Source: a virus. Taken from it: a DNA stretch of 64,000 bases. Below the pieces are notes generated by a model. The model did not search any database, was not told where the DNA came from, and saw nothing but the letters and a program-made list of their open reading frames with translations. The first letter of the stretch is position 1; the number at the start of each line of letters is the position of its first letter. The stretch spans positions 16,710-80,709 of IMG/VR virus record IMGVR_UViG_3300022689_000116; one strand, written 5' to 3'. A program made the position numbers and the translations under genes. Shown here piece after piece: positions 1-62,326 of the stretch.

Positions 1-3000
1 AATGGTTTAATGGAGTTGTTAAATTCACAGGTAGAGTTGGAACATCTTTTCTAGAACCTTTTGTAGATATTGGATATGGTATTCCTTCTATAATGGCTAC
101 TGGTAAATTTTCTGCTTTATATGACAATGATATAACTCAAGCTTTTGATGAGTTTAATAATCATCTTCAAAAACAATTTCCTAATTTTTACACTCATGCT
201 GAAACTGATTCTAAAGCACTTAGTTTAAAGAATCTTACATCTGCTAATTTTTGGGCTGATAAAGTTTTAGGTGGTGCTGCTTTTACAGTTGGTACATTAC
301 TTAATGCTTATGCTACTGCTGGTATTGGAACTGCCCTTAGAGGCGGAGCTGCTTTAAAAGCTTTTAGAGCCGGTTTTAAAGAAATGAGTTTAGCTGCTGA
401 AACAGAAAATGCTTTGAAAGCTATTAGTAGTAAAGCTGCTAGGGTTAGAACTGGAGATGCTATTCAAAATCTTGCCACAACTATTTTATCTGTTGCTGGA
501 GAATCTGGTGTTGAAGCTAGGGATTTAGGTAACACACTTAAAGCTCAAATGGCTGATTATGTTAAACAAGGTCTTATTAGTCAAGAAGAAGCTAGTCGTC
601 AAATTGAAAATGCTATGAATCTTGCTTTTGCAGCTAATGTTGCGATTGTTGGTACTTCTCAATTTATCCAATTTGGTAAACTTTATTCTAGAGGTTTTAA
701 ATCTGACAAACTTAATATATTCAAATTAGTTAAAGAAGGTGGTACATTTAAACCTACTTTACCCGAAACTGGTTTTGGTAAATTTGTAGCTAAATCAGCT
801 GGTGGTAGAGCTATACTCAAAGATATACTTACTGAGAGTAAAGAAGAAGGTTTACAATATCTTACTCAAAAAACTTTAGAATATAAGTATGGTGCTGAAG
901 TTTCTAAAGATATGACTGAATCTATTTCGCATGGTTTTAAAGAACTATTTGGAACTAAAGAAGGTATTGAAAATATGCTTATTGGTGCTATACTTGGTGG
1001 TGGTAGCCATTTAGGTAAAGCTGTAACTGGTAATGCAGAAAATCCTTATACTGCAAAAGTAAATAAAAGTAATGTTGTTGCTGATCTTGCTAATAGATAT
1101 TTTTCAGATGATAATAATAAACTTAGGGATTTAGTTTCTAATGTTGGAGTATATACTGCTGCCAATGAACGTAAAGAATACTATCTTTCTAAAGATGATA
1201 TTTTTAATTATAAAAATGAAGAATCGCAAGAGTTTGCTTCAATGGTTAAGAGTTTTGCTGATCTTGGTGCTATGGATGTTCTTTATGAACAAGTAGATGA
1301 AATAACTTCTATGAATGATGAAGAATATAATAAGATGTTTGGACAAGCCGAAGATGTTAAAGTTACTAAATCTAGAGAAGAACTATCTAGAGAGATTAAA
1401 GAAAAAGCTGAAGCTTTAGATCGTATAAATACTAATATAAATACTGCTTTTAACAATCATATACCAGCATATAAAAATAATTTATTTTATGTTTCAGCTA
1501 TGATTGATGATGGTCGTAGACGTGAAGCTATTCTCAAAAATGAATTATCAGAAGTTACTGGTATTCAATATGAAGATTTTGCTAAGTTGAGAACTCAGAA
1601 TTATAAAGATAGAGAACTAGCTAAAATTGAAAAGTCTAATAAGACTCCCGAAGAAAAACAAAAAGCTATTGATGAATTAGAAAGTCTTAATAAAGAAACT
1701 TTAGATGATGCTTATAGTAAAGCTATCAATAATTGGATAACTGATAATAATCCTGACCTTACCGATACTGAAATAAAAACTCTTACTACTAAGTTAGATG
1801 ATCTTACTAGATTACATGACAGACGACAAAACTTTATTGATACTTATAATTATATGGTATCAGAAAAAGGTATGGAAAATACTACTTTTGAAGGACTTTC
1901 AAAGAGTGCTGATAAAGATGCTCAAGAATCTATTAAAGAACTTCAAGCTTTACAAGAGAAGTTTCAGAAAGATATTAATGAAGGAAAACTCAATAAAAAA
2001 GAGATTGATAAAGCTATTATTGATGCTGAAGCTTTATATAAACTTAATGGTAGGGAATCTTTTAATAAATTAAAGAAAAATCTTACTAAATTAAGAGATA
2101 ACTATTATAATAAAAAGGGGAGTGACAATTCTTCCAATCCTACCGGGAAATCGAACAATACGAAAAATACGAAAGTTGAAGATACTTCTGACATTAATGA
2201 AACTAATGATGATACATCTGTAGCTGAACCTACTCAAGAAGAAGTTGATCTTGAACAAGTTATGGCTGATACCGAGTTAGAAGATATTAATGATGAAGTT
2301 ATAGAAGAAGGTGATGTTAAAAATGTTAGTGAATTAAGAAATTCTAATCTTAGTCAAGATCAAGAAGGATTAATATTAGATGCTTTAGATGAAGCTAATA
2401 AACTTGAAGATACAGAAGGTGTTGATGAAGTTATAAAATCTCCTAAAAAGGTTAGTGGAGATCAAGCTAAGAAAGCTTTTATTCAACTATTTGATAGGCT
2501 TAGTCCTAATAGTATTTTCTCATGGAATCTTTCTAATAATATGCTTTATGATTTTGGAGCTATTATGGAAAAGATAAATGATGTTGCTGTTAAGAATGGT
2601 AAAGAACTTTCTCCTCAGGCTTTTCAAGTACTTCAAGGTTTTTATTTTGCATATGTTTATTCAACAGCTAAAGATCAAGCTAAGTATAAGAATCCTATGT
2701 CTTATAAATATGCTGATTTAGAAAGTGCTGAAATAGCTCATCAAAATAGAGTTGCTGTAACTGTTCATGACGTTAATAAAAAATATACCAAAGATGTTGC
2801 TAAAGAAGATTTAGCAGATATGGAAACAAGACGTGTTGGTCGTGTTACAGAAAATGCTCATAGAACTGTTTCTGCTTTTAATAGAGCTTATGAAAAAGTA
2901 AAAGGTGAGAATAAGTTTAGAGATTTAAACAATACTATTGTAAATCTTGCAGCTTTAGATTTTAATAAAGTTAATGTAGGAAGTACAATTACTTTAAGAA

Positions 3001-6000
3001 TACCTAAAAAGGTTGAACATACTGTTGATGGTATCCCTAAAGGAAAAGCTGAAATACTACAACGTGCTTTAAATAAAGAAAATCTTACTAAAGATGAATT
3101 AAGACAACTTACTATAGAAATGGTAGATGAAGATGGTAATACTATAGGCTATCTTCATACAGAAGAATGGGTTGATAATAAGTTTAAAATGATTAAGGAA
3201 AATCATCCTGATCATTATAGTGATGAAAAGCTTCAAGAAGAAATGGATAATCTTCTTAGTATTAGAGCATCAGTTTATTTAAATGGTTCCGTAAAAACTA
3301 CTGTAACTGGTCGTTCTAATGGTATTTTATTAAACTGGAAAAGTGATAATACAGATGCTGTTACAATTTCTGCTAAAACTGCTTTTCAAGATGATAATCT
3401 TAAGTTCGGAATTGGTGATAGTGGTCGTGTTGAAATAGGTAATAATAGATCATCTAATGATATTGGTGAAGAACTTACTAATCCAGATAAGGTTGTAGAT
3501 GGTATTACTTATGCTGTTTTACCAGTTAATAAAAATACAACTACTAATCAAGTTAAATATATATCTGTACCATTACAATCTATTAAAATTGGTAACCTTA
3601 CGGATGAACAAAAACAAGCTAAGATTAAGAGTAGTATTGTAAATGCTATAAGGATATATATTACTAATGCTAATCCTGATGTAAAAGTAAAACTTAGTGT
3701 TGAAGATCAAAATGTAGTTAAAGATTTAAAGAAGGCTGGTTATGATATTACAACTTCTACTGGATTAAATAATTATTTACAGAACTTTATTTATACTTTT
3801 AAAACTGTAGGTTTTAATTCAGAAGATAAAGCTGGAGAACTTCTTAGAACATTTCTTAAAAGTAAGAGTACTACAGATGTTGCAATTAAAGCCGGAACTA
3901 AGTATATAGAGTTTGGTAGTGGAGATGCTAATGGAGCAGGAGAAAACTATGTTGCAAAAATAACTAAAAAGGGGGTTGAATACTATATAGGTGGAGAACG
4001 TGTGAATCTATCTAAACAAGATAGTATTGATGAAGAAACTTTCTTTAAAGCATTGGGTGGTATAACTAATAAAGCTTATATTGCTAGTGATAGTAAATTG
4101 ATAAATAAGAAAGGTAAATTTAACCTTAATTATATTGTTGATGGGAAAGTTGAAACTAAAGAATATAAACAATATAATGATTATCTTAAAGAAAATTTTC
4201 TTACTGATATTTATGGTCATACAACTAAAGAAGGTAAAACTTATTATTCTATTCATCCTATAATCGAGTTTGATGATAGTTTTATCAAAGGTAAACAAAA
4301 TACTAAACAAGTAGCAGATACTATAAGTGAAACAGAAGGTAAAGCAGAAAAAGAAGTTCGAGCTAAAGCTATGATTGAAAGAGCCATTACAGAAGTTATG
4401 AGTACTGGCGATATTATGGTTGGTGAAGAAACTTATACTCTCGAAGAAATATTACCTATTGGTAAACAAAGTACAGAAGGTGTTACTACTATATATAAAG
4501 ATAGTAAAGGAAAGAAAGTTAAAGTAACTGTTCCTATTACAGATATTGTAGATCAAAAGTATAGTAATAATGATATAGCTGATTTAATTTATGCTAGGGT
4601 ACGTACTGAAAGTAGCCCTGTAGAAAAGGAGATAACCAAAGAAACTCCTAGTGAACAAACAGGAGGTAAATTTAGTACTGATGAACTTGATGATATAGCT
4701 TCTCAATTTGGAGAAACTAATAATACTAATGATGAAGTTATTAATGCTCCTATGCGAGTTGTTGATGATGAAATATTTAATCTTGAAGTTGATTTAGGTA
4801 TTCGTCATAATCCAAATGATACTAAACCTGTTTATAAACGTTGGTTACAAAGACAATATAAAGCGGTTCTTAAAAAAGCTATTGAACTTAATTCTAAACT
4901 TAAAGATACCTCTTATAAGGTAAAGATTATTAAGATTGAGGGAGAGGTTGGAGATAACCGTGTTTATTTTGCTTTAAAAGCTGTTAGGAGAGTTGATGAA
5001 CAAGTCATTAATTCTTTAATTAAAGAAAAAGATCTTTCTACTAATACTCTTAGACAGAATATTGATGGTACTCTATATATTGCAGACCTTAATTTGGCTT
5101 TGCAAAATTCGACCATTGGCGACCTTAAAACAGCTATTATAAGACGTTTAAAAGAAGTTAGGGGTAACAGGTCATTAGAGAAACAGGTGCTTGAAACAAG
5201 CTTAAATGATGCTCTACAAGGCTATATTGACCTTAGAAATCAGTTCATAAGTGCAAAGAATCAAAGTACTGATAAAAACCGTATTGCACAGTATGATAAA
5301 ACTATTACCGGATTAACAGATATTATAAATAATTTTGATACTCTTGCTAAGTTTGCAATTAACGAACTTGCTTCTATTAATTTATTAAGTGTTTCTACTA
5401 AAATTAAATTAGAAGGTGGTAAGATTAAAACTCAAGAGGTTGAAAAAACTATTGATAATAATATTTTAAATGAGAATGATGAAGATGATCCTGATACTGG
5501 TGTAGAAGATATGGATTCAAATGGTGAAGATACTGCTCATTTTGAAACTGAACATAGTATTAAAATAGATCATAAGAAAACTATTTCTAAAGAACTTAAA
5601 CTATTTCTTAGTGATATTACTAATGATAAGATTGGCAGGACTATATTTGGAAAAGCTTTGCCTATGAGATTTGATACTGTTTATAATGATGTTTTAAATG
5701 CTTTATCAAATAAATTATTTACTGGTTATAAAACTTCTTTTGAAGGTATGTTATCTGAATTAGAAAAAGCTTCTGAACAAAAACCTTATTTAATGCAAGT
5801 TGTAGAAAAACTTAAAGAGGAAGCTAAGGATGATAAATCTAAAATTCCTGCACAATTTGAAAGACTTGTATTTAAACATAAATCTGAAATGTTTTATATA
5901 GGTTATTCTTATCGTAAGGATAATTCTAGTAACAATAATAAGAAATACAAAGATAATAAAAAGTATTATTACATTGTTCCAGCTAGAACTAATAATCTAT

Positions 6001-9000
6001 ATAATGAACGTGTTCTTGTAGATAGTTGGATTAGTAATTTTAGAATGGGTCAATATACAACCGTTGATGATAATTATGCTGATTCTATTTTAAGTGCTGA
6101 AAAGTTTGGTAAGTTAAAGAAAGATTATTATAAAATTGCCGATGTTATTGATACTCAAAATACATTATATAAAAATGCTGTTGAAAATGATCAATTTGAG
6201 AAAGCCGAAAGTCATATGCTTAAACTTAAACAAGCTATTAAAGATGCTTTTGGAGTAACTGGTATAATGTTATCTAATGAAACAGTTGATATAATTGCTA
6301 ACAATAAATTTAAGATTGGTAATAATACTGTTACAGTTGCTAATATGTTTAAAGTTGGTAATAAGAATGTTGCTCAAGCTGGTGGTAGATTTACTAGATT
6401 TGTTAAGAATTTAAAGTTTGACAAACCTCTTAGTACATTTAATATATTTTCATCTTCTTTTGTCGAAAGTATTGCAGCTTTAGAATCTAATTATAACAAT
6501 GTTGATTTTAGTAGTAATTACTTAGATCAAGAAGGTAAGTCTATTAGTTCTAATAGTAACTATAAATTCTTAGTTGAAAGAGTTATTACTTTGTTGGATA
6601 ATCCAGTTGTTGATAATAATACTAAAGAAACTATTTGGGAGAAACTTGATAATATTCCTTTCATTCGTAATTCAAGATGGTTTAATGATCTTAAAGAAGG
6701 TAAACTAAATAGAGATAATTTTCATGTAACTTACTCTGACGCTATTGTTCCTTTTAATAAAAGTGATAAAGCAGTTAAAATTAAAAATGCTCCTGAAGCA
6801 GATATTGAAAATTATAAACTAGGTCATTTCTTTAATATGAGAAGTGAACCTGAACAAGAACTTGTTAGGTTTATATATCCTACTCTTTCAGATGGTGGTA
6901 CTGTAATGGAAGTTACAGCTATGGCACAAGATTTTGAACTTGATGACAATAATCAGGTTTCTCAAAATACTATTAGTAGTATAGTAGATCAAATAGTAAT
7001 GCCGGAAGTTGATAGGATTAAAGATGTTAAAGATAAGACTATTGATATTGAAGGTTACAATGAAGGTTCTAAATTATTTTTATTCTTCCCCGAACTTAAT
7101 AAAAAATCTAATGGTTTATTTGATAATGATGGTAATTTAAAACTTGATGTTAAAGGTGAACTCCCATTGGAATCTGTTAAAACTATTAGAAAAGTTGTTA
7201 AAAAATATATTAATAATCTTGTTGATAATAAGATTAACGAATGGATTGATTTTGGTATTCTAAGAGAATCCCCTAAAGGTATTAGAAGTGAAATTCTAAA
7301 CTATGATAAAGATAATCTAATAACTGAAACCCAATTAGAAAACGTTAAAAGGTGGAATACAACTAATGGATTATATGTTGATAGCGAACAAGTTAAATAT
7401 AAAGATAGCACTGGTAAAGAAGTTGAAATAAGACCAGAAGATGTTATATTTGTATATGATACTGATGCTAGTGGAAGTTTACGAAATATAACTTCTGCGG
7501 TAGCTAAAAAACGCTATGGTGCTAAAGATGGTTATGTTAATAGAGTTGTAGGTAATTCATTTGGTATTGTTACACTTGCAGATGAAAATGCCGATATTAA
7601 AGATATGTATCTTTCGAGGAATGAAGTTCGCGAAGCTTTTCAAAAGGTTGTAGATGCTGCCAATAAGAATCCTGATAAATATTTTGTATTACCTACTTTT
7701 AGAAATTCATTTAAACAGTTTGGTTATAATACTTTTGAATATGCTCAAATATTGAGTACTTTAGCTTTACCTGAAAATATAGTTATAAATGAAAAGTTTG
7801 CTAAAACTATAAGTAAAGCTAGAACTAGTTTATTAGAAACTACTCCCGAAGAACTTGAAAGTAGAAAAGAGAAGTCTAAAGCATATATTTATAAAGATCA
7901 TATCTTACATTTTGTTGATAAGAATTATTCTGATAGAATGGAGATTATGCTCGAAGGTACTAATAAGAATAGAATTAAGCAAATGGCTCTCGATTATGTA
8001 CTTAATTATATGGTAGCTAATACTAATATTCATCAACTTATAATTGGCGATCCTGCTTTATACTTTAAAAAGGCTAATGAAAATTTATATTCTCCAGAGA
8101 ATGCAATAGCTACATTTGATAATGTTATAAAACGTCTTGCAGCTGATCGCGCTCCTGGTGAACACATGGCTAATAGTTTTGCTGTAGATGAAGTTTATAA
8201 ACAAGTATTTGTATTAGATAGAAAGAAAAAACTTGCTTCACTAGCTAATACTTATCTTAAATCATTAGGTTTTGATTATAGTGAAATTAATGGTACGGAT
8301 GCTCAAGAAATGACTACTTTTAAAGAGGATATGTATGTTAAATATAGAAATGGTATTATAAGTAAAGCTTTATATAATAGACTATTTAATAAAAATGGTA
8401 TTGTTACTAAAGAGTTAAATCGTAAAGATTCTAATGGCAAACCAAATCCTAACCATTATTATATGGGAGCTATTTATGGAACTCTTAGTAAAGAAGATTC
8501 TGATCTTTATAAAGAATTTAAAGAAAATGTTAATCAACCAGTTAAACCTGTTTATGTTAATAATCTTGCTCAAACTATAGATGGACACAATGTTGATAGA
8601 CGTATGTATATTAAATCTTCATCGTTTGCTTTAACACCTTCTCTGACTATGAATAGAGAACTTGATAAGGTACGTATTTATATGGAATCTAATGGCATTG
8701 ATCGTCTTGCATTTGGTTCTGCTGTTAAAGTTGGTAATTTTGCAACAAATCCACGAATATTTAATAATGATGGTACTATAACTATTCCTGATGATTTTGA
8801 TGACTATACTATGGAACTTCCTAGAAGTGGTTTTAGAATCCAGCAAGATAATCCATTTGATGTTAATAAAAATAAGGTTAAATTTGGAGTTCAAGAATCA
8901 GCCCTTCTATTTAATAATCTTTTACATATTGATAAATTTAAAGATTTAAGCACACGATTTAATGATACTTATTCTAAACTTTATCAATTAGAATTAGGTA

Positions 9001-12000: not shown

Positions 12001-13214
12001 ATGAATTAAAAGAGTTCTTCCATGTTCAACATCCTGATACTAATAAAGTTTATCTATTTAGACTTATTAATAAAAAGGATGGTACTTATGCTAAAATTCC
12101 AACTTTAGGTCAGCAAGGTATTTCTGAATATAATTATGATTCTATAAATGACAACAATTATCAGAATAGTGTACTTAACAATAATAATGATAAACTTATT
12201 ACATTCCGTGATCCTACATTACATGATAAGAAAGCTAGTTATTTAAGTCAATCTGATCTTACCGATAACCGTTCCTTAATAGACAATTATAACATAAATA
12301 GTTTAAATGCTAAAACAATATTAAGAAATATCATTAAGCACAAACAAGATAGAATTAATAGGAATAAGCTTCAAACTAATGATATGAATAATCAATTAGT
12401 ATTTAATTCTTTCATAGCTGAAAAGATATTAGATCGTATTGATAACTTCGATATTAAAATTGTTATAGATAATACAATTAAAGCTTCAGGACAAATTACA
12501 AGTACTGATAATTATGCTAATAATATAACTATTAAATTAAACTTACAAGATATAAATTCTTATAAGAATAATCAAGTTGTTGATACTGTTAGTATTGAAG
12601 ATGCTAGTATTAATCCTGAACTTTATACTTTTGAACGTGTTTTCTTACATGAAGGACTTCATGCTATTACGCTTAATTATCTAAAGACAACTGAGGAGAG
12701 CAATCTTTCTATTCTACAGGGAAATTGGGCAAAGGCTAGAACTTATGCTCAAAACAATGGTGTCAATATTAAAGAACTTGATAGACTTGTTAATACACCC
12801 GGAGCTTCTCTTCCCGCTGATATGTATAAATATTATGGACTTGCTCAAACTAAGGATGGTAAGCCTAGACTAGATGAGTTTATAACAGGTGTATTTACTG
12901 ATGCTGAATTTAGGAATTTTTTAAGTGGTATTGATAGTGATACTAAATCAGTATTAGATAAGATACTTGAGTTTATTGTTAATGCTCTAAACGAGATAGG
13001 TTTTAATATTAAAGAAAATACTTTAGCTGAAAGTTCATTGCTTGAAATTATTAATGTTATTGAGGAGTCAGATTTCCCGGTAAAGAAGAAAAATGTGAAT
13101 GTCGAGAATGATAGTATTAATAGTGTTCTTAAAGCATTTGGTGAAGAAAATTTAGATAATATTATAAATGATCTTATTAAAAATAATCAAGTTAGTATTG
13201 CTTGTAAACTTTAA
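1..13214 (+). CDS. Giant virion RNA polymerase polyprotein (crAss-like), 5'-truncated
   Basis: The frame is open from position 3 (WFNGVVKF...), so the true start is upstream of the window. It carries double-psi RNAP motifs RIPTQG (~9648) and GSDFDVDK (DFDVD at 9765-9779), plus QPVKP, IKSS, SAVKVG and VDNAK. The N-terminus has Gly/Ala-rich hydrophobic helices and the C-terminus has a zincin motif HEGLH (12648-12662)...DEF. Confidence 0.93.
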   Translation, partial: WFNGVVKFTGRVGTSFLEPFVDIGYGIPSIMATGKFSALYDNDITQAFDEFNNHLQKQFPNFYTHAETDSKALSLKNLTSANFWADKVLGGAAFTVGTLLNAYATAGIGTALRGGAALKAFRAGFKEMSLAAETENALKAISSKAARVRTGDAIQNLATTILSVAGESGVEARDLGNTLKAQMADYVKQGLISQEEASRQIENAMNLAFAANVAIVGTSQFIQFGKLYSRGFKSDKLNIFKLVKEGGTFKPTLPETGFGKFVAKSAGGRAILKDILTESKEEGLQYLTQKTLEYKYGAEVSKDMTESISHGFKELFGTKEGIENMLIGAILGGGSHLGKAVTGNAENPYTAKVNKSNVVADLANRYFSDDNNKLRDLVSNVGVYTAANERKEYYLSKDDIFNYKNEESQEFASMVKSFADLGAMDVLYEQVDEITSMNDEEYNKMFGQAEDVKVTKSREELSREIKEKAEALDRINTNINTAFNNHIPAYKNNLFYVSAMIDDGRRREAILKNELSEVTGIQYEDFAKLRTQNYKDRELAKIEKSNKTPEEKQKAIDELESLNKETLDDAYSKAINNWITDNNPDLTDTEIKTLTTKLDDLTRLHDRRQNFIDTYNYMVSEKGMENTTFEGLSKSADKDAQESIKELQALQEKFQKDINEGKLNKKEIDKAIIDAEALYKLNGRESFNKLKKNLTKLRDNYYNKKGSDNSSNPTGKSNNTKNTKVEDTSDINETNDDTSVAEPTQEEVDLEQVMADTELEDINDEVIEEGDVKNVSELRNSNLSQDQEGLILDALDEANKLEDTEGVDEVIKSPKKVSGDQAKKAFIQLFDRLSPNSIFSWNLSNNMLYDFGAIMEKINDVAVKNGKELSPQAFQVLQGFYFAYVYSTAKDQAKYKNPMSYKYADLESAEIAHQNRVAVTVHDVNKKYTKDVAKEDLADMETRRVGRVTENAHRTVSAFNRAYEKVKGENKFRDLNNTIVNLAALDFNKVNVGSTITLRIPKKVEHTVDGIPKGKAEILQRALNKENLTKDELRQLTIEMVDEDGNTIGYLHTEEWVDNKFKMIKENHPDHYSDEKLQEEMDNLLSIRASVYLNGSVKTTVTGRSNGILLNWKSDNTDAVTISAKTAFQDDNLKFGIGDSGRVEIGNNRSSNDIGEELTNPDKVVDGITYAVLPVNKNTTTNQVKYISVPLQSIKIGNLTDEQKQAKIKSSIVNAIRIYITNANPDVKVKLSVEDQNVVKDLKKAGYDITTSTGLNNYLQNFIYTFKTVGFNSEDKAGELLRTFLKSKSTTDVAIKAGTKYIEFGSGDANGAGENYVAKITKKGVEYYIGGERVNLSKQDSIDEETFFKALGGITNKAYIASDSKLINKKGKFNLNYIVDGKVETKEYKQYNDYLKENFLTDIYGHTTKEGKTYYSIHPIIEFDDSFIKGKQNTKQVADTISETEGKAEKEVRAKAMIERAITEVMSTGDIMVGEETYTLEEILPIGKQSTEGVTTIYKDSKGKKVKVTVPITDIVDQKYSNNDIADLIYARVRTESSPVEKEITKETPSEQTGGKFSTDELDDIASQFGETNNTNDEVINAPMRVVDDEIFNLEVDLGIRHNPNDTKPVYKRWLQRQYKAVLKKAIELNSKLKDTSYKVKIIKIEGEVGDNRVYFALKAVRRVDEQVINSLIKEKDLSTNTLRQNIDGTLYIADLNLALQNSTIGDLKTAIIRRLKEVRGNRSLEKQVLETSLNDALQGYIDLRNQFISAKNQSTDKNRIAQYDKTITGLTDIINNFDTLAKFAINELASINLLSVSTKIKLEGGKIKTQEVEKTIDNNILNENDEDDPDTGVEDMDSNGEDTAHFETEHSIKIDHKKTISKELKLFLSDITNDKIGRTIFGKALPMRFDTVYNDVLNALSNKLFTGYKTSFEGMLSELEKASEQKPYLMQVVEKLKEEAKDDKSKIPAQFERLVFKHKSEMFYIGYSYRKDNSSNNNKKYKDNKKYYYIVPARTNNLYNERVLVDSWISNFRMGQYTTVDDNYADSILSAEKFGKLKKDYYKIADVIDTQNTLYKNAVENDQFEKAESHMLKLKQAIKDAFGVTGIMLSNETVDIIANNKFKIGNNTVTVANMFKVGNKNVAQAGGRFTRFVKNLKFDKPLSTFNIFSSSFVESIAALESNYNNVDFSSNYLDQEGKSISSNSNYKFLVERVITLLDNPVVDNNTKETIWEKLDNIPFIRNSRWFNDLKEGKLNRDNFHVTYSDAIVPFNKSDKAVKIKNAPEADIENYKLGHFFNMRSEPEQELVRFIYPTLSDGGTVMEVTAMAQDFELDDNNQVSQNTISSIVDQIVMPEVDRIKDVKDKTIDIEGYNEGSKLFLFFPELNKKSNGLFDNDGNLKLDVKGELPLESVKTIRKVVKKYINNLVDNKINEWIDFGILRESPKGIRSEILNYDKDNLITETQLENVKRWNTTNGLYVDSEQVKYKDSTGKEVEIRPEDVIFVYDTDASGSLRNITSAVAKKRYGAKDGYVNRVVGNSFGIVTLADENADIKDMYLSRNEVREAFQKVVDAANKNPDKYFVLPTFRNSFKQFGYNTFEYAQILSTLALPENIVINEKFAKTISKARTSLLETTPEELESRKEKSKAYIYKDHILHFVDKNYSDRMEIMLEGTNKNRIKQMALDYVLNYMVANTNIHQLIIGDPALYFKKANENLYSPENAIATFDNVIKRLAADRAPGEHMANSFAVDEVYKQVFVLDRKKKLASLANTYLKSLGFDYSEINGTDAQEMTTFKEDMYVKYRNGIISKALYNRLFNKNGIVTKELNRKDSNGKPNPNHYYMGAIYGTLSKEDSDLYKEFKENVNQPVKPVYVNNLAQTIDGHNVDRRMYIKSSSFALTPSLTMNRELDKVRIYMESNGIDRLAFGSAVKVGNFATNPRIFNNDGTITIPDDFDDYTMELPRSGFRIQQDNPFDVNKNKVKFGVQESALLFNNLLHIDKFKDLSTRFNDTYSKLYQLELGKLYTQLGILEEGQKLSDLNETILDTTFINDKINLEKLSALVKEEASARGYSRNDIVGLGLKDGEFFIRLGFHTRAINLESLFNSIINNRVISHKITGKSFILGTEEGFKHLEDKKLRDNIVYTSDIVDDLKPMGFTDKDGNYIDIKDVDKDSKFQPAQIFIPSILRDNNGKKINLFEKDIETKSYKYLMIVKRNGQNKLVLRKNMVDSDLFKAFGFRIPTQGHNSMTSIEIAGFLPEDAGDLIIAPRDFVKQMGSDFDVDKLYSYMYNMEVNEDGKIKKVKSGNDSKKALQNQLLDIHFGVLNDPNVDVQKQIFEPLEFGILKMEQGEFISSDKDVEKAVNNMYNGKLADYIDDLNSTRDKMFTGIDDMFQRQSFLEGRDGGVGIGKFSLDSTFNALLQQTKVEIGKETVKGFKPDSVTLGNKVSNHIYDAKSNKIGDKEFNKSQVISWYQSASVDNAKEKLLYKLNINDVTYGAITYLNQLGFNEEIIWLINQPIIRDYVRELQIVNSSINSVDDYINRATLKVYEKYNRDRVFSKEDGTDKLTKTYNNPGRYGIGELHKLLKQNKEGIKDNTADEFNRSQLGIFKIFKDFSKKGDAIADLQSVLNSNSKGMGKDVATAYIKTKAILEIDDNVSFYNPSQLIGTKINEIKYRKLEPEQQNQYFKIEDNVYIKPTTIAGMASIFGTIAGTKLWSSIFPYNSPIIGREIDKIHEISNFRSKHISTEAKDIKHLWTELKKFINSKTISNISTESPNEIRNRLMLDRFDGDNNHTHYSLASIIKAGKENGTLTSNDLVNTLILEPKKNRNSFALVKYNTNGKNIDESNLINGFMQLIHTNKKIGDFNGVEYTTRNLAADLLLYSLTAGGVQQFGRFAKYVPMEYLDKVGYTEAINSLDFTNPYIAGYTEMNEDHNNISEFVTQYFQHFPTKTQKVNLSNSFMFYDNSLDLDDLKQIQLDKLNIEDSVLVEGVPVSKEMEQAENRRLAFIRRIYRTYDENDDSNNELKEFFHVQHPDTNKVYLFRLINKKDGTYAKIPTLGQQGISEYNYDSINDNNYQNSVLNNNNDKLITFRDPTLHDKKASYLSQSDLTDNRSLIDNYNINSLNAKTILRNIIKHKQDRINRNKLQTNDMNNQLVFNSFIAEKILDRIDNFDIKIVIDNTIKASGQITSTDNYANNITIKLNLQDINSYKNNQVVDTVSIEDASINPELYTFERVFLHEGLHAITLNYLKTTEESNLSILQGNWAKARTYAQNNGVNIKELDRLVNTPGASLPADMYKYYGLAQTKDGKPRLDEFITGVFTDAEFRNFLSGIDSDTKSVLDKILEFIVNALNEIGFNIKENTLAESSLLEIINVIEESDFPVKKKNVNVENDSINSVLKAFGEENLDNIINDLIKNNQVSIACKL

Positions 13215-13226
13215 ATAATTAAAGAT

Positions 13227-18268: not shown

Positions 18269-18442
18269 TTAAAATTTATTATCAAAACTACCACGATTAT
18301 AAGCATCAATAACCCCTGCCATTATAGCAAGGGTTCTGATTTCTTTTTGAGAAGTATGAGTATAAGCTAATTCCATCTTATCAGAAAGTTCTATAACTTT
18401 AGTAGCTATTTCACGAGCTTCTTCTAATTTCATAGCACTCAT
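18269..18442 (-). CDS. Small hypothetical protein (57 aa, not in ORF track)
   Basis: MSAMKLEEAREIATKVIELSDKM...DNKF. Its ATG overlaps the upstream TGA and it fills the gap exactly. Confidence 0.65.
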   Translation of the reverse strand: MSAMKLEEAREIATKVIELSDKMELAYTHTSQKEIRTLAIMAGVIDAYNRGSFDNKF

Positions 18443-20142: not shown

Positions 20143-20752
20143 TTATAAATTTTAAATATTCACCTACTTTAGCAGGTGTATCGAATACATTCAAATTAAT
20201 AACATAATCAAATGTATCTAGAGTTATATCCATAGCTTCACTTTCATGATTATAATCTCTGCTATCCATATTTTCATCAACAAACGATTTCCCTGTAAAA
20301 GCAATGATTATGCCATCCTTACTTTTAACAAAGTCAGCTTCATTTTGAAAACGTATATCAGTAAGTAATAAATTAGTAGATAGAACATTTTGTTCTTTAT
20401 TACCAACCCAATAAGTTCTGTATAGTTTATCAATCCACATTTTAGAATTGATTATTCTACCAACATTAGTACCAAAAAGCTGCATAAACTGACCATAAGT
20501 CATAGGTTTAGTATAATCATCTTGTAATCTAAATGGAATTAACTTATTTTTAACCTCCCGATCTTCAAGTTCTTCACGAGTAATACCAAACATATAACTA
20601 GTAATCTGTTTAATAGGGTCAGCGAAAGCATCAACTTTCCAATTTTTATAAGCAGGTCTGGCATATCTATTGATATTGTGCATAAAAGCATTAACAGCAG
20701 TAGATTTGCCTGTACCAATTTTACCTGCAAATCCAATTAATTTATTTGTCAT
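20120..20752 (-). CDS. Deoxynucleoside monophosphate kinase
   Basis: P-loop GKIGTGKS, FADPIK, MQLFGT, TDIRFQNE and HESE. Confidence 0.9.
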   Translation of the reverse strand: MTNKLIGFAGKIGTGKSTAVNAFMHNINRYARPAYKNWKVDAFADPIKQITSYMFGITREELEDREVKNKLIPFRLQDDYTKPMTYGQFMQLFGTNVGRIINSKMWIDKLYRTYWVGNKEQNVLSTNLLLTDIRFQNEADFVKSKDGIIIAFTGKSFVDENMDSRDYNHESEAMDITLDTFDYVINLNVFDTPAKVGEYLKFIIVNEKII

Positions 20753-23518: not shown

Positions 23519-23984
23519 TGTACCATTTTAAATTTGACAAATTCTTTAAATATAACGTTCTTACTAATTTTACTACAACTGCATATTTTGGATTACCAAT
23601 TAAAGCAAGTTTATAATAAAAGTAGTCTTTAAGTTCAAACACTTCACGCATCATCATAGCCCTACTGCCATCAGTTCTAATATCATAAGTTAAATCATGA
23701 TGATTAAAATTTAATGGTATGAACATAGTTTGATTATTATTAAGTCTAACTAGATCATTATTATCTACCTGATCAGTTTCTCCTAACAAATGTACATCTT
23801 TTGTACTAAAGTTTATACCACTAGCTTCATATTTATTTTCTAAACTCTTTTCTTTATCGTTATATAGAGCTTCTACCATTTCTTTTTCTACAGGGAGAAC
23901 TACATAAATATAACTATTATTATCAGTATTTAAAGTAGCAACTGGTCTAACTTTAAATGGAGTATCACATCTTTGTATATTCAT
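23499..23984 (-). CDS. Hypothetical protein
   Basis: 161 aa ORF between primase and ligase. Confidence 0.75.
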   Translation of the reverse strand: MNIQRCDTPFKVRPVATLNTDNNSYIYVVLPVEKEMVEALYNDKEKSLENKYEASGINFSTKDVHLLGETDQVDNNDLVRLNNNQTMFIPLNFNHHDLTYDIRTDGSRAMMMREVFELKDYFYYKLALIGNPKYAVVVKLVRTLYLKNLSNLKWYNDERNN

Positions 23985-29124: not shown

Positions 29125-29189
29125 TTTCCCGGTAGGATTAGAAAGTGATGTACGCTGACTGTCGCATACTTTCTATCTCTACAGGGAAA
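29125..29189. repeat. Imperfect inverted repeat made of two copies of the dispersed 22-bp motif
   Basis: TTTCCCGGTAGGATTAGAAAGT-N21-ACTTTCTATCTCTACAGGGAAA, 18/22 complementary. Confidence 0.85.
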
Positions 29190-29195
29190 TTGATC

Positions 29196-36215: not shown

Positions 36216-36927
36216 TTAAACTCATTGAAGAAATATCATTCATTTTTTCAATCAATTCATTATAACTAAGCTTTAATTTATTATGACCATTTATAGTTAA
36301 CTCAAGGTTACTATCCATAATTTCTAATTCTTCTCTAAGACCTGTTATTAGATCAACTTGAACTTTACGAATTTTATCAATATTTTCTATTTCAGCATCT
36401 TTAGCTTTAATGGTATGCTCAAGTTTATCAATTATAACTTGTTGATCATATCCATCTTTAACTACTAATTGAGCAGTTTCATTACTAATTTTTAATTCTT
36501 TTCTAAGACTAGTTATTAAATTAACTAGAACTTTATATCTTTGATCAATGATTTTTATTTCTTCTTGAAGTTTATAATTATCTTCCATATAAGTATTAAT
36601 TATAGCACACTTATCATCAATAATACGTCTAAGATTATCAATAATAGCATCTTTATCATCTTCGGGATTCTCTTTTTTACCGGGAGGTTGAACATGGATT
36701 ATATCTTCATTTTTACAAGGAGTCTGAGCTTTTAGTTCCTTTAGTTTACTACGAGCTTCTTTAAGTTGTTCTTTAAACTTAAATTGTGTATCTATAATAG
36801 TCTTTTGAGTATAAGGATTATCACCAGTAATTAAATCTCTTTCAGTTATTTTAATACACCTTTTAAGATGTGCTATTTTACTTTCAATATCATGAATAGT
36901 AGTGTTATTTTTATTGTTTTCCATCAC
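36160..36927 (-). CDS. Coiled-coil protein with internal duplication
   Basis: Heptad pattern. KVLVNLITSLRKELKI recurs as KVQVDLITGLREELEI. Confidence 0.7.
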   Translation of the reverse strand: MMENNKNNTTIHDIESKIAHLKRCIKITERDLITGDNPYTQKTIIDTQFKFKEQLKEARSKLKELKAQTPCKNEDIIHVQPPGKKENPEDDKDAIIDNLRRIIDDKCAIINTYMEDNYKLQEEIKIIDQRYKVLVNLITSLRKELKISNETAQLVVKDGYDQQVIIDKLEHTIKAKDAEIENIDKIRKVQVDLITGLREELEIMDSNLELTINGHNKLKLSYNELIEKMNDISSMSLSEFKSYKKNPFVYNKLKI

Positions 36928-40158: not shown

Positions 40159-40200
40159 AAAAAAAGCAATAGCTCCAGATTTAACTCCAGAACTATTGCT
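40159..40200 (-). terminator. Probable terminator
   Basis: AGCAATAG/CTATTGCT stem with a T7 tail on the minus strand. Confidence 0.55.
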
Positions 40201-40212
40201 AATGTTATCCAA

Positions 40213-41945: not shown

Positions 41946-42050
41946 AATTTTAAATTTTAATTTGTTTATAATTGATTTTATAACTTGTTTAAGTATTGTA
42001 ACTAATTGTACGATTTCCCTGTAGATTAGAAGGATATGAAACGGTTTTGA

Positions 42051-42287: not shown

Positions 42288-42414
42288 GAATATCTATAAA
42301 ACTATCCATGAGTGGTTTGGAATCTCCTTTTTTACAGGGAAATTGAACAATACGTTCAACACGTTTATTAGTAGTATTACGTTTTGATTTAATAATATTA
42401 AAAGAACCTTTCAT
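42232..42414 (-). CDS. Hypothetical protein
   Basis: 60 aa, packed with its neighbours. Confidence 0.4.
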   Translation of the reverse strand: MKGSFNIIKSKRNTTNKRVERIVQFPCKKGDSKPLMDSFIDILDNTYTTHYQSSKTSIIY

Positions 42415-47206: not shown

Positions 47207-47953
47207 ATGAAAAAACTTAATTCTGTTGAAACTGCTTTTGAAAATTTAAAACTTAGTACTGGTAAAGGTGCTAGTGAACATACTGATAAGTATATAAAAG
47301 TAATAAATAATGATAAACGTAAATCAAAAGTATTTCTTGGTGGTACTTGTAATGGTTCTACTTGGAGAGAAGAATTGATTCCTTATCTAGAAGAAGCTAA
47401 GATTAAATACTTTAATCCTGTTCTTGAAGATTGGAATGATAAAGCTAAAGGTGTCGAAGATAAAGAAAAACTTAAATGTGGTATTCATCTTTATGTTATC
47501 ACTCCTGAAATGAAAGGTCTTTATTCTATTGCCGAAGCTGTTGATTCTGCTTATAAAAATCCTAAAGGTACATTTCTTGTTGTAATTGGTGAAACAAATG
47601 ATAAGATTTTCAATAAAGATCAAGTTAACTCTTTAGAGTCTATTTTAAAATTAGTTCGTACTATTTATAATAGATCAGATAGAACCATGTATTTTGATAG
47701 TTTAAATGATGAAAGTTTAAAACTTATTACTGATAGTATTAAAAGTGTTAAAAGAGGTTTTGCTAACAGAGTTATATTTGATGTACAATCTCATCCTATT
47801 TCTTATAGTGGTATTAATGGTATTCAAGATTATGATATTATTAATTTTGGTAAACAAGTTCTCAAAGCTAATAATAAGCTTAAATCTTGTGTTGAGAATG
47901 CAAATGCTATTCGTAAGATTAGTGGTGCTTTATCTGAATTAGATAAGAAATAA
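47207..47953 (+). CDS. Nucleoside 2-deoxyribosyltransferase-like protein
   Basis: VFLGGTCNGSTWRE, YFNPV..DW and G.YSIAEAVDS. Confidence 0.75.
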   Translation: MKKLNSVETAFENLKLSTGKGASEHTDKYIKVINNDKRKSKVFLGGTCNGSTWREELIPYLEEAKIKYFNPVLEDWNDKAKGVEDKEKLKCGIHLYVITPEMKGLYSIAEAVDSAYKNPKGTFLVVIGETNDKIFNKDQVNSLESILKLVRTIYNRSDRTMYFDSLNDESLKLITDSIKSVKRGFANRVIFDVQSHPISYSGINGIQDYDIINFGKQVLKANNKLKSCVENANAIRKISGALSELDKK

Positions 47954-49227: not shown

Positions 49228-49800
49228 ATGAAAAATATAGTTATACTTATTGTATTACTGGGTTTGATGAATTCTTGTGGAGTTATAAATTGTATATTTA
49301 ATGATTATGAACCTATTACTGAAATAGATTCTGTATTAGTTGAAGTACCTATTTATGTACCTATACCTTCCGGCAGTGATAGTACTTCTACTGATAGTTT
49401 GAAAATGTACGTTCAGAATTTCTCTATTCTACAGGGAATCGTTGATAGTCTTAAAAAACTTAAACCTGATAATAATGCTGTCGTTTATATTCCTAGTAAA
49501 ATAAAAGATGATAGTGTTTATGTTGAAACTGAAATAGCTTATGCCAATGCTTATATTAAAAATAATAAATTAAGCATTGATCTAAATAATAAAAAAGATT
49601 CATTGTTGTATTATTATAATTATTATACTTTTGATTATTTACCATTGTTAAAAAAGTATAATGAACTTGCTGTTAGTTATAATGCTATAAAGAATAAGAA
49701 AGTTACCTTTTGGGATAAAACAAAAGGCTCGTTGATGTGGATGGTTATAGGTTGCGGAATAGGGTTTTTTCTTACACATCGTATCGTAACTAAACAATAG
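49228..49800 (+). CDS. Lipoprotein with C-terminal TM helix (unimolecular spanin candidate)
   Basis: Signal with lipobox ...LLGLMNS-C and C-terminal LMWMVIGCGIGFFL. Confidence 0.65.
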   Translation: MKNIVILIVLLGLMNSCGVINCIFNDYEPITEIDSVLVEVPIYVPIPSGSDSTSTDSLKMYVQNFSILQGIVDSLKKLKPDNNAVVYIPSKIKDDSVYVETEIAYANAYIKNNKLSIDLNNKKDSLLYYYNYYTFDYLPLLKKYNELAVSYNAIKNKKVTFWDKTKGSLMWMVIGCGIGFFLTHRIVTKQ

Positions 49801-49827
49801 TAATACTTTCATACCGTTTGAAAATTT

Positions 49828-49860
49828 AAGTCCGAATAATTCGTTATTTGGACTTTTTTT
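49828..49860 (+). terminator. Intrinsic terminator
   Basis: AAGTCCGAATAA-ttcg-TTATTTGGACTT followed by a T run. Confidence 0.8.
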
Positions 49861-49889
49861 AATACATTTACAAACTAATATATAAAGTT

Positions 49890-52329: not shown

Positions 52330-54633
52330 ATGGCTTCTAAATATAGCTTACCTAATCATTTTGAAAGTGATGCTCAAAAGAATAAACCTGATTGGTATAT
52401 TAACGCTTTTGAATATTATTTTGATATAGCTTTATCATCTACTGATTTAAGTTATCTTGAAACTATTAAAAATGCTTTTCATGGAGAACTTAGAAGAGAA
52501 GATTATAATTATGTTCTTAATCCTTTCAATTTTAAAGAAGATCGTTTTAAGAATCTTCCCGGTCGTATTAGAAATTTTGATATAATTAGTCCTGTATGGC
52601 GTAGGTTCATGGGGGAATATACTCAATCACCTAATCAATTTCAAGTTGTCGCAGTTAATCCTGAAAATGAGAATCAGATGTTAGCTGAATTAAATAATAT
52701 GGTTAATACTCAGTTAAGACAAATGGCAGTTAATGCTCTTAATAAAGATGATATTAAAACTGGCATTGATAGTCAAGAGGTTCCAAATCTTAAAGAGAGA
52801 GTTGAAAATTTTAAATCTACTTGGAGAGATAAACGTGCCGCTGTTGATCAAGAAATTTTAGATATCATTAAGTATATGACAAATGATGAAATATTTCGTT
52901 ATAGAACTATTTCTGATTGGATTGTTTATGGTAGATGTTTTAGTTATCGTACAATCCTCAATAATGATATACTTAAAGAGTATGTTCCTGCAGAAGAATA
53001 TTATCCTATAGATAATGGTGAAGAATTTGTTGAAGATCATGATGCTGGAATTCGTGTTAGAAAGATGACTCTTTTTCAAATACTTGAACGTCTTGGTGAT
53101 CGTATGGGTGAAAAAGAAAAGAAAAGACTTAAAGAACTTATTAGTTTATTTAATGATGGTAATACTGCTGTAGATTCTAAAATGCTTTCTTCATTAAATA
53201 ATATTGAATCTTTGTTTAATACTGATTTATTTAGTGAAGGTAAAAGGTATGCTTTTTGTGATACTCAAGGTTTTGCTAATGTTTATCATTTAGTATATAA
53301 AACTTATAAAAAAGTTGGTATTCTTACTTATATAGATGAACTTGGTGTTGAACGTGAGATGGAAGTTTCTCCAGATTATAAACTTAATTATGAACTTGGT
53401 GATATAGAAATGACTAAAGAACATATCCCTGTAGTAAAGGATATGTATCGTATCGGAGATGATGTTTTTGAACTTTATCTTAAACCTGAAGAACTAATTG
53501 TTCAACGTGAAGATTTAAACAATAGACATGAATGTAAATTACCTTATAATGGTAAGATTGGTCTATTTCCTGGATTTCCTAATCATAGCCTTGTTGATGC
53601 TTTACTTCCTTATCAAGTGTTTATAAATATTTTACATTTAGTTAGAGAAAGGGCTATTGCAAAGAATCATGGTAAAATTGCTGTAATCCCTAAAGGTTTA
53701 CTTGGTGCTGATGATATTTCTCAAGAAGAACAAATATATTATATGTTAGCTGATAATAAATTATATGCAGATGATACCGCTGGTAATTTTAGTTTAGCTA
53801 TTCAAGCTGTTAAATCTATTGATCTTTCAGATTATGAATTTATACGATCTTTGAATGATCTTATTAAGGAAACTAAGGAAGCTGCTTATGAAGATGTAGA
53901 TATGAATCGTCAACGTCTTGGACAAACTCAAGCTAGTGATGGTAAATATACTACTCAACAAGCTCTTTTAAGAAGTGCTATGGGTTCTGCTATTATAACT
54001 GAAATGTATAATAAATTTTTAGAAACAGATTATAATTCAGACATTGATCATAGTAAGGTTGCTTTTATTGAAGGAAAGAAAGGTGAATATATTACTTCTG
54101 ACAAACACGTAGCTATGTTTGAAATTGATGGTATATATCATTCTGAAACTAATTATGGTATCTTTGCTAAACATGATCAACTTGAAAAAGAAAAGTTAGA
54201 ACAACTTAAATCTTTTGCTTTTAGTGCTGGACAGAATGGTCAATTAACTCTTGCTGCTGAAGCTGTAGAAGCTAATAATTCTTCTAAGGTTAGAGATATT
54301 ATAAAACGTTTTGAAGATATTATGAAAACTCGTGAAGAAAATATGCAGAAAGCAGAACAAGAAAATAATCTTGCAATAGCTAAAGAAGAAAATGATACGG
54401 AACAAGCTAAATTAAAAAATGCTATGCAGATATCTACTATGAAAGAACAAACCGCAATGGACATTGCTCAACTTGAAGCTCTTGTTGAGGAATTAAAGAT
54501 TGCTTCTAAAGATAAAGCTGTGGCTATTCAAGCTGAAATTGAAAGACGTAGAATAGCTATGGATGATCGTAACAACAGAATGAAGTCTGTTATGAATAGT
54601 AATGTAAATAGTGTAAGTACTCCTACTATATAA
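52330..54633 (+). CDS. Portal protein
   Basis: Follows terL. P.RIRNFDII.P, KLPYNG, PYQ..INI and RQRLG are crAss-type portal motifs. Confidence 0.9.
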   Translation: MASKYSLPNHFESDAQKNKPDWYINAFEYYFDIALSSTDLSYLETIKNAFHGELRREDYNYVLNPFNFKEDRFKNLPGRIRNFDIISPVWRRFMGEYTQSPNQFQVVAVNPENENQMLAELNNMVNTQLRQMAVNALNKDDIKTGIDSQEVPNLKERVENFKSTWRDKRAAVDQEILDIIKYMTNDEIFRYRTISDWIVYGRCFSYRTILNNDILKEYVPAEEYYPIDNGEEFVEDHDAGIRVRKMTLFQILERLGDRMGEKEKKRLKELISLFNDGNTAVDSKMLSSLNNIESLFNTDLFSEGKRYAFCDTQGFANVYHLVYKTYKKVGILTYIDELGVEREMEVSPDYKLNYELGDIEMTKEHIPVVKDMYRIGDDVFELYLKPEELIVQREDLNNRHECKLPYNGKIGLFPGFPNHSLVDALLPYQVFINILHLVRERAIAKNHGKIAVIPKGLLGADDISQEEQIYYMLADNKLYADDTAGNFSLAIQAVKSIDLSDYEFIRSLNDLIKETKEAAYEDVDMNRQRLGQTQASDGKYTTQQALLRSAMGSAIITEMYNKFLETDYNSDIDHSKVAFIEGKKGEYITSDKHVAMFEIDGIYHSETNYGIFAKHDQLEKEKLEQLKSFAFSAGQNGQLTLAAEAVEANNSSKVRDIIKRFEDIMKTREENMQKAEQENNLAIAKEENDTEQAKLKNAMQISTMKEQTAMDIAQLEALVEELKIASKDKAVAIQAEIERRRIAMDDRNNRMKSVMNSNVNSVSTPTI

Positions 54634-60869: not shown

Positions 60870-60887
60870 TATAGTTCTCCAAATAAT

Positions 60888-60916
60888 AAACCCCTTCACA
60901 ATGGAGGGGTTTTTTT
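60888..60916 (+). terminator. Intrinsic terminator
   Basis: AAACCCCTTCA-caa-TGGAGGGGTTT followed by a T run. Confidence 0.85.
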
Positions 60917-60930
60917 AAACCTTTCTATCA

Positions 60931-61573: not shown

Positions 61574-62245
61574 ATGATATATTTATCATTAAATAAATTT
61601 CCAATAGGAAATAATAAGGGTTATGTTTTTACAGATGCTACACTTCAATTCGATGATGAAGGACTACTTTCTGGTTGGGGAGGTGCTGTTCTTGATTTTG
61701 ATAATTTTACATATGACGGTGATCGCATACAGTACGATGTTCTATTTGAAGGTACTTTTAAAACTCCTACAGAAACTAAAGAATTTAGTTTTAGTTTACC
61801 TGATAATTATATTTTTGGTACTACTGCAGTCCCAATAGTTTCTCAGTCTGAAATTACCTTTTGCTTAGTAATGGATAGTACTGGTGAATTAAGTATTATA
61901 AAAACTGAAGATTATGATGCTAGTAATTATGTAGAATTTCCAGATGGAATACTCGATTATACTTATAAAGTATTAAATGGAGGTTCTTATGATGATTCCG
62001 AAGCTTTTACAGAACGATTAGCTATACTTGATAAAGTTAATTCTATAATTAATAGCAAGGTTATTAATTTAGATCTTAAATTCTTTTCGGATAACTATGA
62101 TATCAATAGTCTTTTAGATTTACTTATAATGGATGGTTTAAATATTGCCATAACTAAATCTGCTGAAAATGCTTCTAATGATACGGCAACTCTTAAAATG
62201 ATTGAAGCTATTACTAATACAGCAAATGAATACTATGTTGATTAA
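61574..62245 (+). CDS. Putative tail structural protein
   Basis: Acidic beta-rich N-terminus containing FPDG..Y.Y, in the tail region. Confidence 0.55.
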   Translation: MIYLSLNKFPIGNNKGYVFTDATLQFDDEGLLSGWGGAVLDFDNFTYDGDRIQYDVLFEGTFKTPTETKEFSFSLPDNYIFGTTAVPIVSQSEITFCLVMDSTGELSIIKTEDYDASNYVEFPDGILDYTYKVLNGGSYDDSEAFTERLAILDKVNSIINSKVINLDLKFFSDNYDINSLLDLLIMDGLNIAITKSAENASNDTATLKMIEAITNTANEYYVD

Positions 62246-62326
62246 TGACTGTTGTAATCCTTCTATTCTACAGGGAAACTGAAAATGATTAAAAAAAACT
62301 TTTGAAATTGATCATTTAATTTACTT

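Follow-up and report, generated by a model that had tools for sequence, protein, structure and literature searches.

The window analyzed in this study is a 64,000-nucleotide (nt) stretch of viral DNA, bases 16,710-80,709 of the 80,709-bp linear IMG/VR contig IMGVR_UViG_3300022689_000116, whose completeness was estimated with CheckV at 85%. Its source is a crAss-like phage, which carries the gene of a 4,496-amino-acid (aa) polyprotein of the virion RNA polymerase (RNAP) type, together with large terminase, portal and major capsid genes related to those of the Intestiviridae. The replication set of the phage consists of a family-B DNA polymerase, a homologue of DnaG-like primases, and SF1B and SNF2 helicases; no DnaB-type helicase was detected. 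Analysis of the window confirmed that it contains about 17 copies of one oriented DNA word of 20-30 bases, which is written into genes and spacers on both strands. Moreover, this word is one dialect of an oriented DNA word that occurs in every Intestiviridae genome examined.

The repeated word

The 23-mer consensus proposed in a preliminary description of this DNA, when up to three mismatches were allowed, gave five matches versus none in 100 dinucleotide shuffles, and the core TCTACMGGGAAA, a 12-mer, gave 11 matches with at most one mismatch versus a shuffle mean of 0.31. The top-ranking repeated GC-containing 14-mer of the contig was CTATTCTACAGGGA. A position weight matrix (PWM) refined on the genome detected 16 copies when run on the 80.7-kb contig, as against none when the sequence was reversed. 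The seven copies previously regarded as strong were all recovered by the PWM, and six of the seven shorter core copies listed with them were confirmed, while the remaining one, at 20285-20302(-), had a lower score and is a probable member of the set (Table 1). The motif, previously given a length of about 22 bp, exists as described and is longer than was stated; the full word in the window phage approximates AATC-YTTCTAWTC-TAC-M-GGGAAAYYG-NACAA and reaches up to about 35 bp. Its description as genome-wide is correct for the window and needs a qualifier for bases 1-16709 of the contig, a block of tail and receptor-binding genes that precedes the window, in which only two weak copies were found, at 4932(+) and 6476(-). 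These two copies form a convergent pair, which resembles the pair 4673(+)/6277(-) in the relative G001 (described below).

Table 1. Copies of the oriented word in the window. Positions are those of the window; the fourth column gives the core interval of the preliminary description.
Position	Strand	Status	Earlier core interval	Context
2131..2153	+	copy		sense in virion-RNAP polyprotein gene (4,496 aa); low-complexity linker, peptide NPTGKS
4611..4636	-	copy	4616-4631	antisense in giant polyprotein gene; peptide SSPVEKE; orthologue of G001:20288(-)
12705..12727	+	copy, exact consensus		sense, 0.5 kb before the giant-gene stop; peptide SILQGN
13071..13096	-	copy	13071-13090	antisense, 132 nt before the giant-gene stop; convergent with the 12705 copy; syntenic with G001:28946(-)
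20285..20311	-	probable weak copy	20285-20302	overlaps P-loop (AFTGKS) of deoxynucleoside monophosphate kinase; rare codons GGG, TCG
23875..23900	+	copy	23881-23897	antisense in 161-aa gene; peptide LPVEKE
29125..29146	-	copy, intergenic		left arm of divergent pair; between family-B DNA polymerase and SNF2-like ATPase genes
29168..29192	+	copy, intergenic		right arm of the back-to-back divergent pair begun by 29125..29146
36664..36689	+	copy	36669-36686	antisense in 254-aa gene
36700..36725	+	weak copy TTTTTACAAGGAG		neighbor of the 36664-36689 copy, at a distance of 36 nt
42011..42033	-	copy, exact consensus, intergenic		at the divergence of the leftward and rightward gene blocks; gene starting at 41945 lies 78 nt downstream
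42323..42345	+	copy	42325-42345	partner of 42011..42033, 310 bp off, opposite direction
49419..49441	+	copy		sense in 190-aa gene; peptide SILQGI; large terminase gene follows 0.7 kb downstream
53422..53447	-	copy	53424-53440	antisense in portal gene; built on conserved P-x-V; no insertion
62259..62281	+	copy, intergenic		14 nt after the stop of gene 61574-62245; ahead of gene starting at 62404

Selection on the DNA

The copies within genes contain codons that are rare in this genome, as had been noted before: GGG accounts for 3% of Gly codons, ACC for 5% of Thr, TCG for 2% of Ser, CTA for 7% of Leu and CAG for 17% of Gln. The copy at 20285-20302(-) lies in gene 20120-20752, where the Walker-A sequence AFTGKS is spelled ACA GGG AAA TCG. 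Because its GKS is spelled with the rare GGG and TCG, this copy was counted as a probable member of the word set, in which the P-loop doubles as a weak copy.

In its generic form, the word was defined as TACNGGG preceded by a 12-base tract with nine or more pyrimidines. A codon-preserving shuffle, which retains every protein and the codon usage of each gene, yielded 5.3 +/- 0.9 generic cores, far below the 15 that were observed; four of these 15 are intergenic and were not shuffled, and the comparison within coding sequence is 11 versus about 1.3. The gene-borne copies are not confined to one reading frame or to one orientation, and the antisense ones read (S/L/I)PV(E/K)(K/E) in low-complexity linkers. 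The copies at 12715 and 49430 share a frame (SILQG), but a shared peptide was rejected as the cause, since the intergenic copies are noncoding.

Comparison with homologues illustrated how the copies came about. The portal copy uses a conserved P-x-V and shows no insertion relative to three homologues, and the copy at 4622(-) in the giant gene has an orthologue in a relative with a protein of only 31% identity, SPVEK being present in both. Because the aligned portal and giant-gene copies show no insertion, the copies evolved in place and are not a mobile element. Furthermore, in four clusters of orthologous sites, one of which is antisense in a small gene, the word was 0.89-0.95 identical, as compared with 0.55-0.7 for the surrounding 100 nt. 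The rare codons, the codon shuffle, the occurrence of copies on either strand and the retention of orthologous sites while their flanks diverged all uphold the earlier proposal that selection acts on the DNA rather than on the protein.

It is extremely improbable that the pattern is an artefact produced by chance, by convergence of protein sequences or by the spread of a small element of the miniature inverted-repeat transposable element (MITE) or repetitive extragenic palindromic (REP) type. Two weak copies do coincide with TGKS peptides, one being a P-loop, and a few generic matches in relatives correspond to a conserved terminase peptide (clusters 0 and 5). However, no match was found in the shuffle and reversed-sequence controls, the copies occupy three reading frames and both strands as well as spacers, and they arose without insertion relative to homologues. 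A MITE- or REP-like repeat was also rejected on the grounds that the copies are mostly genic and that single copies are not palindromic. In every Intestiviridae genome examined, the word is under strong selection, to the point of overriding codon choice in essential genes, and the reader of the word may serve a core step in DNA handling by these abundant gut phages.

Dialects of the word in the Intestiviridae

The PWM of the window phage detected nothing above 16 bits in relatives. The generic word, in turn, gave 178 matches versus 10 in the control in 80 terminase-related IMG/VR loci (1.33 Mb), and each of the relatives studied more closely was found to have a form of its own. In G001 (88.6 kb, terminase 53% identical), the word reads GATCnTYCCCTCTTTWC-TAC-R-GGGGAATCT and has 12-13 copies versus none in the control. 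In crAss002, it reads AATCnCTCCTT-TAC-GGGGGAA, with 11 generic matches (control 2) and 31 by PWM (control 0), and in the prototype crAssphage (strain ZA) it reads TCCATCCTC-TAC-GGGGRGTMTA, with 16 generic matches and 31 by PWM (controls 0 and 0). A strict pattern matched all 30 near-complete relatives with no control match, and seven of eight further named Intestiviridae genomes, again with none in the control. The eighth, ctbg_1, lacks the strict pattern and repeats a dialect of its own, CTTTACGGGCCAGCT. This genome (MH616963.1, first 50 kb) is the named relative with the best terminase and portal DNA match, and its G run is replaced by GGGCC. Two of the word-bearing phages are in culture, crAss002 on B. 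xylanisolvens and Rudgehvirus jaberico on B. cellulosilyticus WH2.

The positions of the word are partly conserved as well. About half of the sites of the window phage are syntenic with sites in G001, and the pair 42011(-)/42323(+) is syntenic with G001:63860(-)/63971(+) and with 96492(-)/96609(+) of crAssphage ZA. Relatives also retain a copy directly upstream of the terminase gene. Single-protein pattern scans retrieved relatives only at 40-41% terminase identity; the closest relatives by terminase (59-57% identity) lie outside IMG/VR and were left out of the comparison.

Beyond the family, the search was negative. The Steigviridae phages crAss001, phi14:2 and DAC15 had no copy each (control 0), and in 151 Bacteroidales genomes the generic word occurred at chance level, with one match versus five in the control. 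The window dialect had 15 isolated single matches in 185,579 species genomes, all of them outside any phage context and giving no clue to the host, and a scan of IMG/VR with the exact dialect gave one chance match. Literature searches with strings (CTACGGGG together with crAss; CCTCTACGGGG) and with keywords found no description of the word.

The assumption that the motif is special to the window phage was therefore wrong. Across the Intestiviridae, the word is a tract rich in pyrimidines followed by an invariant TAC, which a single variable base separates from a G run; the flanks are lineage-specific. Since the window dialect has GGGAAA in place of a run of five G and its pyrimidine tract is interrupted by A/T, the essential core narrows to TAC-N-GGG with an upstream pyrimidine-rich segment. 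Because the dialects are lineage-specific and the word is absent from genomes of the host order, we infer that its reader is phage-encoded. The earlier suggestion of sites for a phage protein is supported to this extent, although the virion-RNAP promoter or loading role attached to it is not (see below). The word is thus very probably a selected, family-wide DNA signal read by the phage itself.

These findings have several uses. The word can serve as a sequence marker for Intestiviridae contigs, with the dialect sorting the lineages; it is a constraint to be respected when Intestiviridae phages are recoded or engineered; and in the cultured crAss002 and Rudgehvirus jaberico it offers a testable handle on replication, transcription and DNA processing. 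The window adds a divergent dialect without hairpin potential, direct evidence of origin in place, and a P-loop that can serve as a copy.

A small GC-rich element (GGAGCGAAGCGGAGCG or GCGTAGC) lies within about 10 nt of some copies in two of the relatives, namely ZA copies 5965, 28214, 28308, 45090 and 58618 and crAss002 copies 4214 and 86218. Such elements follow copies even within genes, and none was seen in the window phage. The sequence GCGAAGC is an unusually stable DNA mini-hairpin.

Distribution along the genome

The two strands carry similar numbers of copies: 10 on the plus strand and 6-7 on the minus strand in the window phage, 14 and 17 in crAssphage ZA, and 17 and 14 in crAss002. 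The direction of the word is unrelated to that of the genes, with nine co-oriented and eight anti-oriented copies in the window phage and 16 and 15 in crAss002, and many copies lie deep within long genes. The earlier observations that strong copies recur every 7-16 kb and are not tied to gene starts remain valid; per strand, the spacing is roughly 7-16 kb in the window phage and 5-7 kb in crAssphage and crAss002.

Within each strand, the copies are spaced more evenly than random points, as judged by the chance of random points being as even. On the minus strand of the window phage, the gaps are 14.9, 8.5, 16.1, 12.9 and 11.4 kb (coefficient of variation 0.21; p = 0.004), and the plus strand gave p = 0.03. 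The corresponding values were p = 0.009 for the plus strand of G001, p = 0.007 (plus) and p below 0.0001 (minus) for crAssphage ZA, and p = 0.0002 (plus) and p = 0.006 (minus) for crAss002. When the strands were pooled, the spacing was much less regular than strand by strand. The probable copy at 20285, if counted, cuts a 16-kb gap of the minus strand in half. Moreover, successive copies tend to alternate between strands, with 12 switches out of 15 in the window phage (p = 0.03) and 26 out of 31 in crAss002 (p = 0.0002). Among the options offered in the preliminary description, an orientation signal comes nearest to the observed pattern; packaging or genome-organization sites are also conceivable.

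Inverted pairs less than 120 bp apart numbered seven in four genomes, versus about 0.9 expected. All seven are divergent, but the rule that close pairs are always divergent was discarded, as convergent close pairs were found in relatives. In the window, the pair 29134(-)/29180(+) directly follows the polymerase gene, and the pair 42023(-)/42333(+) marks the point from which the two gene blocks diverge. Copies are about three-fold enriched in spacers; most copies of the window phage are inside genes.

Single copies have no detectable structure. Eighteen single copies from three dialects folded no better than shuffles (z -1.2 to +1.35), the word showed no pairing covariation beyond base composition, and a UACG-tetraloop or other hairpin was rejected in the absence of covariation and excess folding. 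Only back-to-back pairs fold; as a single strand, the pair 29125/29168 reaches -13.5 kcal/mol (z = -4.1). Rfam 15 gave no match at the gathering score within the window.

An intrinsic terminator was also rejected as an identity for the word, as single copies have neither a hairpin nor a T run and canonical terminators sit elsewhere in the contig. Such terminators, with a GC-rich hairpin and a T run, are present at 49801-49889, 60870-60930, 25145-25214, 25956-26066 and 40098-40212 of the window, and a further one at 13837-13909 of the contig, at a distance of 73 nt ahead of a gene whose start lies 2,799 bases upstream of the window. Because canonical intrinsic terminators follow several genes, the transcripts of the phage therefore end at ordinary signals unconnected to the word.

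Possible functions of the word

Because the word is oriented, regular per strand, independent of transcription, absent from the host and quick to change its dialect, its reader may be sought in a tracking machine that needs a site within a limited distance. We tentatively favor the possibility that the copies mark fixed positions at which the replication proteins of the phage start, or are loaded for, DNA-strand synthesis. A phage-encoded protein would read the word in one orientation while tracking along one strand; a primase without a DnaB carrier would need addressed sites on each exposed strand; and back-to-back pairs of the word would act as two-way start zones.

The gene content of these phages is consistent with such a role. 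The word-bearing genomes have the family-B polymerase and the SF1B and SNF2 helicases in common. No match to PolA or DnaB_C was found in any of the word-bearing genomes searched, and a homologue of the primase-like protein (36-42% identity) was found in 31 of the 33 genomes searched, including 30 of the 32 that bear the word. In the window, this protein is encoded at 23996-25144(-); it matches PHROG 12622, annotated 'DNA primase', with E = 2e-33 and is conserved about as well as the terminase. In the three word-less Steigviridae, on the other hand, either weak DnaB-like matches or a helicase annotated as replicative were present, and crAss001 has PolA in addition. The window thus adds a contrast in replication modules (no DnaB and no PolA) between the families with and without the word. 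On a more tentative footing still, the replisome of the Intestiviridae, to which the most abundant human gut phage belongs, could be DnaB-less and addressed by sequence, with the word directing the start or reloading of primase or helicase and the pairs acting as two-way origins. If this is true, word and reader would co-evolve into dialects that isolate co-infecting phages from each other.

Known priming systems provide partial parallels. About 26 sites per genome are preferred by the T7 primase, whose extended recognition sequence spans 15 nt (PMC12839067). Like the word in its proposed role, these sites are strand-specific and read on single-stranded DNA; they differ from it in being weakly conserved, whereas the word is nearly invariant within each genome. 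The G4 origin, plasmid G-sites and ssiA/ssiB of RSF1010 are strand-specific and read on single strands, as is proposed for the word, and RSF1010 pairs its sites on opposite strands, like the word pairs.

Several observations speak against a start or loading role. For the primase-like protein, sequence searches of Pfam, NCBIfam and PDB gave no match, and no obvious Cys4 zinc finger could be seen in it. The difference in replication modules between the Intestiviridae and the Steigviridae is in effect one phylogenetic contrast, and the link drawn from it is weak. With one site per 6-12 kb per strand, the word is far sparser than ordinary lagging-strand priming, and the signals of G4 and the plasmid ssi sites at which primase acts alone are stable hairpins, whereas single copies of the word fold like shuffles. 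In addition, among the intergenic copies of relatives, 45 have the direction of the next gene and 19 the opposite one (counts that are not phylogenetically independent), and such copies often lie 9-30 nt ahead of a start codon, which hints at some tie with expression. RepL or another initiator beside the divergent pair was looked for and discarded, as the flanking genes had no family match, and gene co-occurrence did not discriminate a reader because too many genes are common to all word-bearing genomes.

The position of these intergenic copies is one of the features expected of promoters, and the copies might be start sites for a phage RNA polymerase, making transcripts or RNA primers from the G run, although we consider this unlikely. 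The core CTAC(A/G)GGG(G/A)(A/G) resembles positions -5 to +6 of the T7 promoter consensus, CTATAGGGAGA, and a constant core with lineage-specific flanks is also the pattern of T7, T3 and SP6. A word of about 23 bp built in this way was found in the window phage, G001, crAss002, ZA and ctbg_1. T7-group promoters are likewise asymmetric, 20-25 bp long and sometimes located within upstream genes; small GC-rich hairpins follow some copies in crAssphage and crAss002, as they do on T7 transcripts; and the virion RNAP of phi14:2 prefers single-stranded templates. However, T7-group promoters all point with the genes, whereas half of the word copies face against them, many lie kilobases inside long genes with nothing downstream to express, and evenness of spacing within a strand is not characteristic of promoters. 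No polymerase of the T7 type was found; a search of the 80.7-kb contig (85% complete) with PF00940 gave no match, a weak negative because the model matched none of 14 control genomes either.

The only crAss-like virion RNAP that has been studied, that of phi14:2, points in the same direction. The early transcripts of phi14:2 have no common motif, its middle and late genes use the host RNAP, and the phage itself lacks the word. Nor do single copies form the stable hairpin of N4 virion-RNAP promoters. The proposal that the copies are promoters or loading sites of the virion RNAP for staged genome entry accordingly does not agree with the orientation counts, with the copies deep in genes or with the motif-free transcription of phi14:2. 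Furthermore, the copy at 62259 precedes a separate site that resembles a host-type promoter. This site, TTTG-N22-TATATTTG at 62301-62334(+), lies about 30 nt after the word copy and 70 nt before gene 62404, and it is the only intergenic match to the Bacteroidetes sigma-A pattern ahead of a gene of the same direction. The host-type Bacteroides promoter pattern as a whole was not enriched, with nine matches versus nine in the reversed control. Since the strands are balanced, gene direction is irrelevant, the copies originated in place and single copies are unfolded, the promoter, mobile-element and hairpin readings are weak, as is the terminator reading.

The even, strand-balanced distribution raises another explanation, namely that the word labels the DNA as the phage's own, much as Chi or DNA uptake sequences do, for a DNA-translocating helicase-nuclease or a recombination or packaging machine, whichever direction that enzyme comes from. 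Uptake signal sequences (USS, Pasteurellaceae), DNA uptake sequences (DUS, Neisseriaceae) and Chi have the same statistics, being oriented, present equally on both strands, over-even per strand, genic and arranged as inverted pairs in spacers, and they mark 'own' DNA; the word, being essentially absent from host-order genomes, could also tell self from host. Among the proteins of the phage are a PD-(D/E)XK-type exonuclease, a RecD/Dda-like helicase and a member of the Sipho_Gp157 family; homologues of this last protein in crAssphage and crAss002 carry the annotation Gam-like nuclease inhibitor. Nevertheless, this explanation is improbable. The known tags are 5-12 nt long, occur about once per kb or more densely and are bacterial, read by uptake receptors or RecBCD/AddAB, whereas the word is 16-30 nt long with one copy per 3-6 kb, is confined to one phage family, changes its dialect fast and is at chance level rather than abundant in Bacteroidales. 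No reading machine was found, and packaging, being unidirectional, would need only one orientation.

Rather improbable, too, is the possibility that the copies are sites of a phage nickase, giving localized single-strand interruptions as in T5, phiKMV-like phages and tf. The nick consensus is TACT/RTGMC in tf and CGACxxxxxCCTA/CTCCGG in phiKMV (PMC3517423), and these systems resemble the word in having dispersed, short and asymmetric sequences with lineage variants and conserved positions (PMC3517423). An ATP-dependent ligase and a polynucleotide kinase 3'-phosphatase are among the phage's own enzymes, and nicks would supply 3'-OH starts for strand-displacement synthesis. However, all described phage nick sites are on one strand and unevenly distributed (PMC3517423), whereas the word is on both strands and evenly spaced. 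Nicks at opposite-strand pairs 46 bp apart would weaken the duplex, and no candidate nickase was found.

The length of the word allows for one more reading, which we regard as very doubtful: the copies would be double-stranded sites of an architectural or regulatory phage protein of the IHF/HU type that organizes, condenses or silences the genome. In its favor are the length of the word (up to about 35 bp), its asymmetry and AATC-like submotifs, its dispersed sites, which suit genome-wide organization, and the presence in the contig of homologues of the crAss 'IHF-like' gene. However, the 'IHF-like' proteins of crAss phages have been assigned to the tail. Moreover, binding to duplex DNA does not explain why the copies are even on each strand while the pooled set is less regular, and the number of copies differs two-fold between relatives of similar genome size. 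The word belongs to none of the described signal families with which it was compared.

Other genes in the window

Three accessory genes of the window were also identified. A polynucleotide kinase 3'-phosphatase (PF08645) is encoded at 45794-46336(+), a nucleoside 2-deoxyribosyltransferase-like protein (PF15891) at 47207-47953(+), and a DUF932 protein, which is conserved across the Intestiviridae, at 18442-19491(-).

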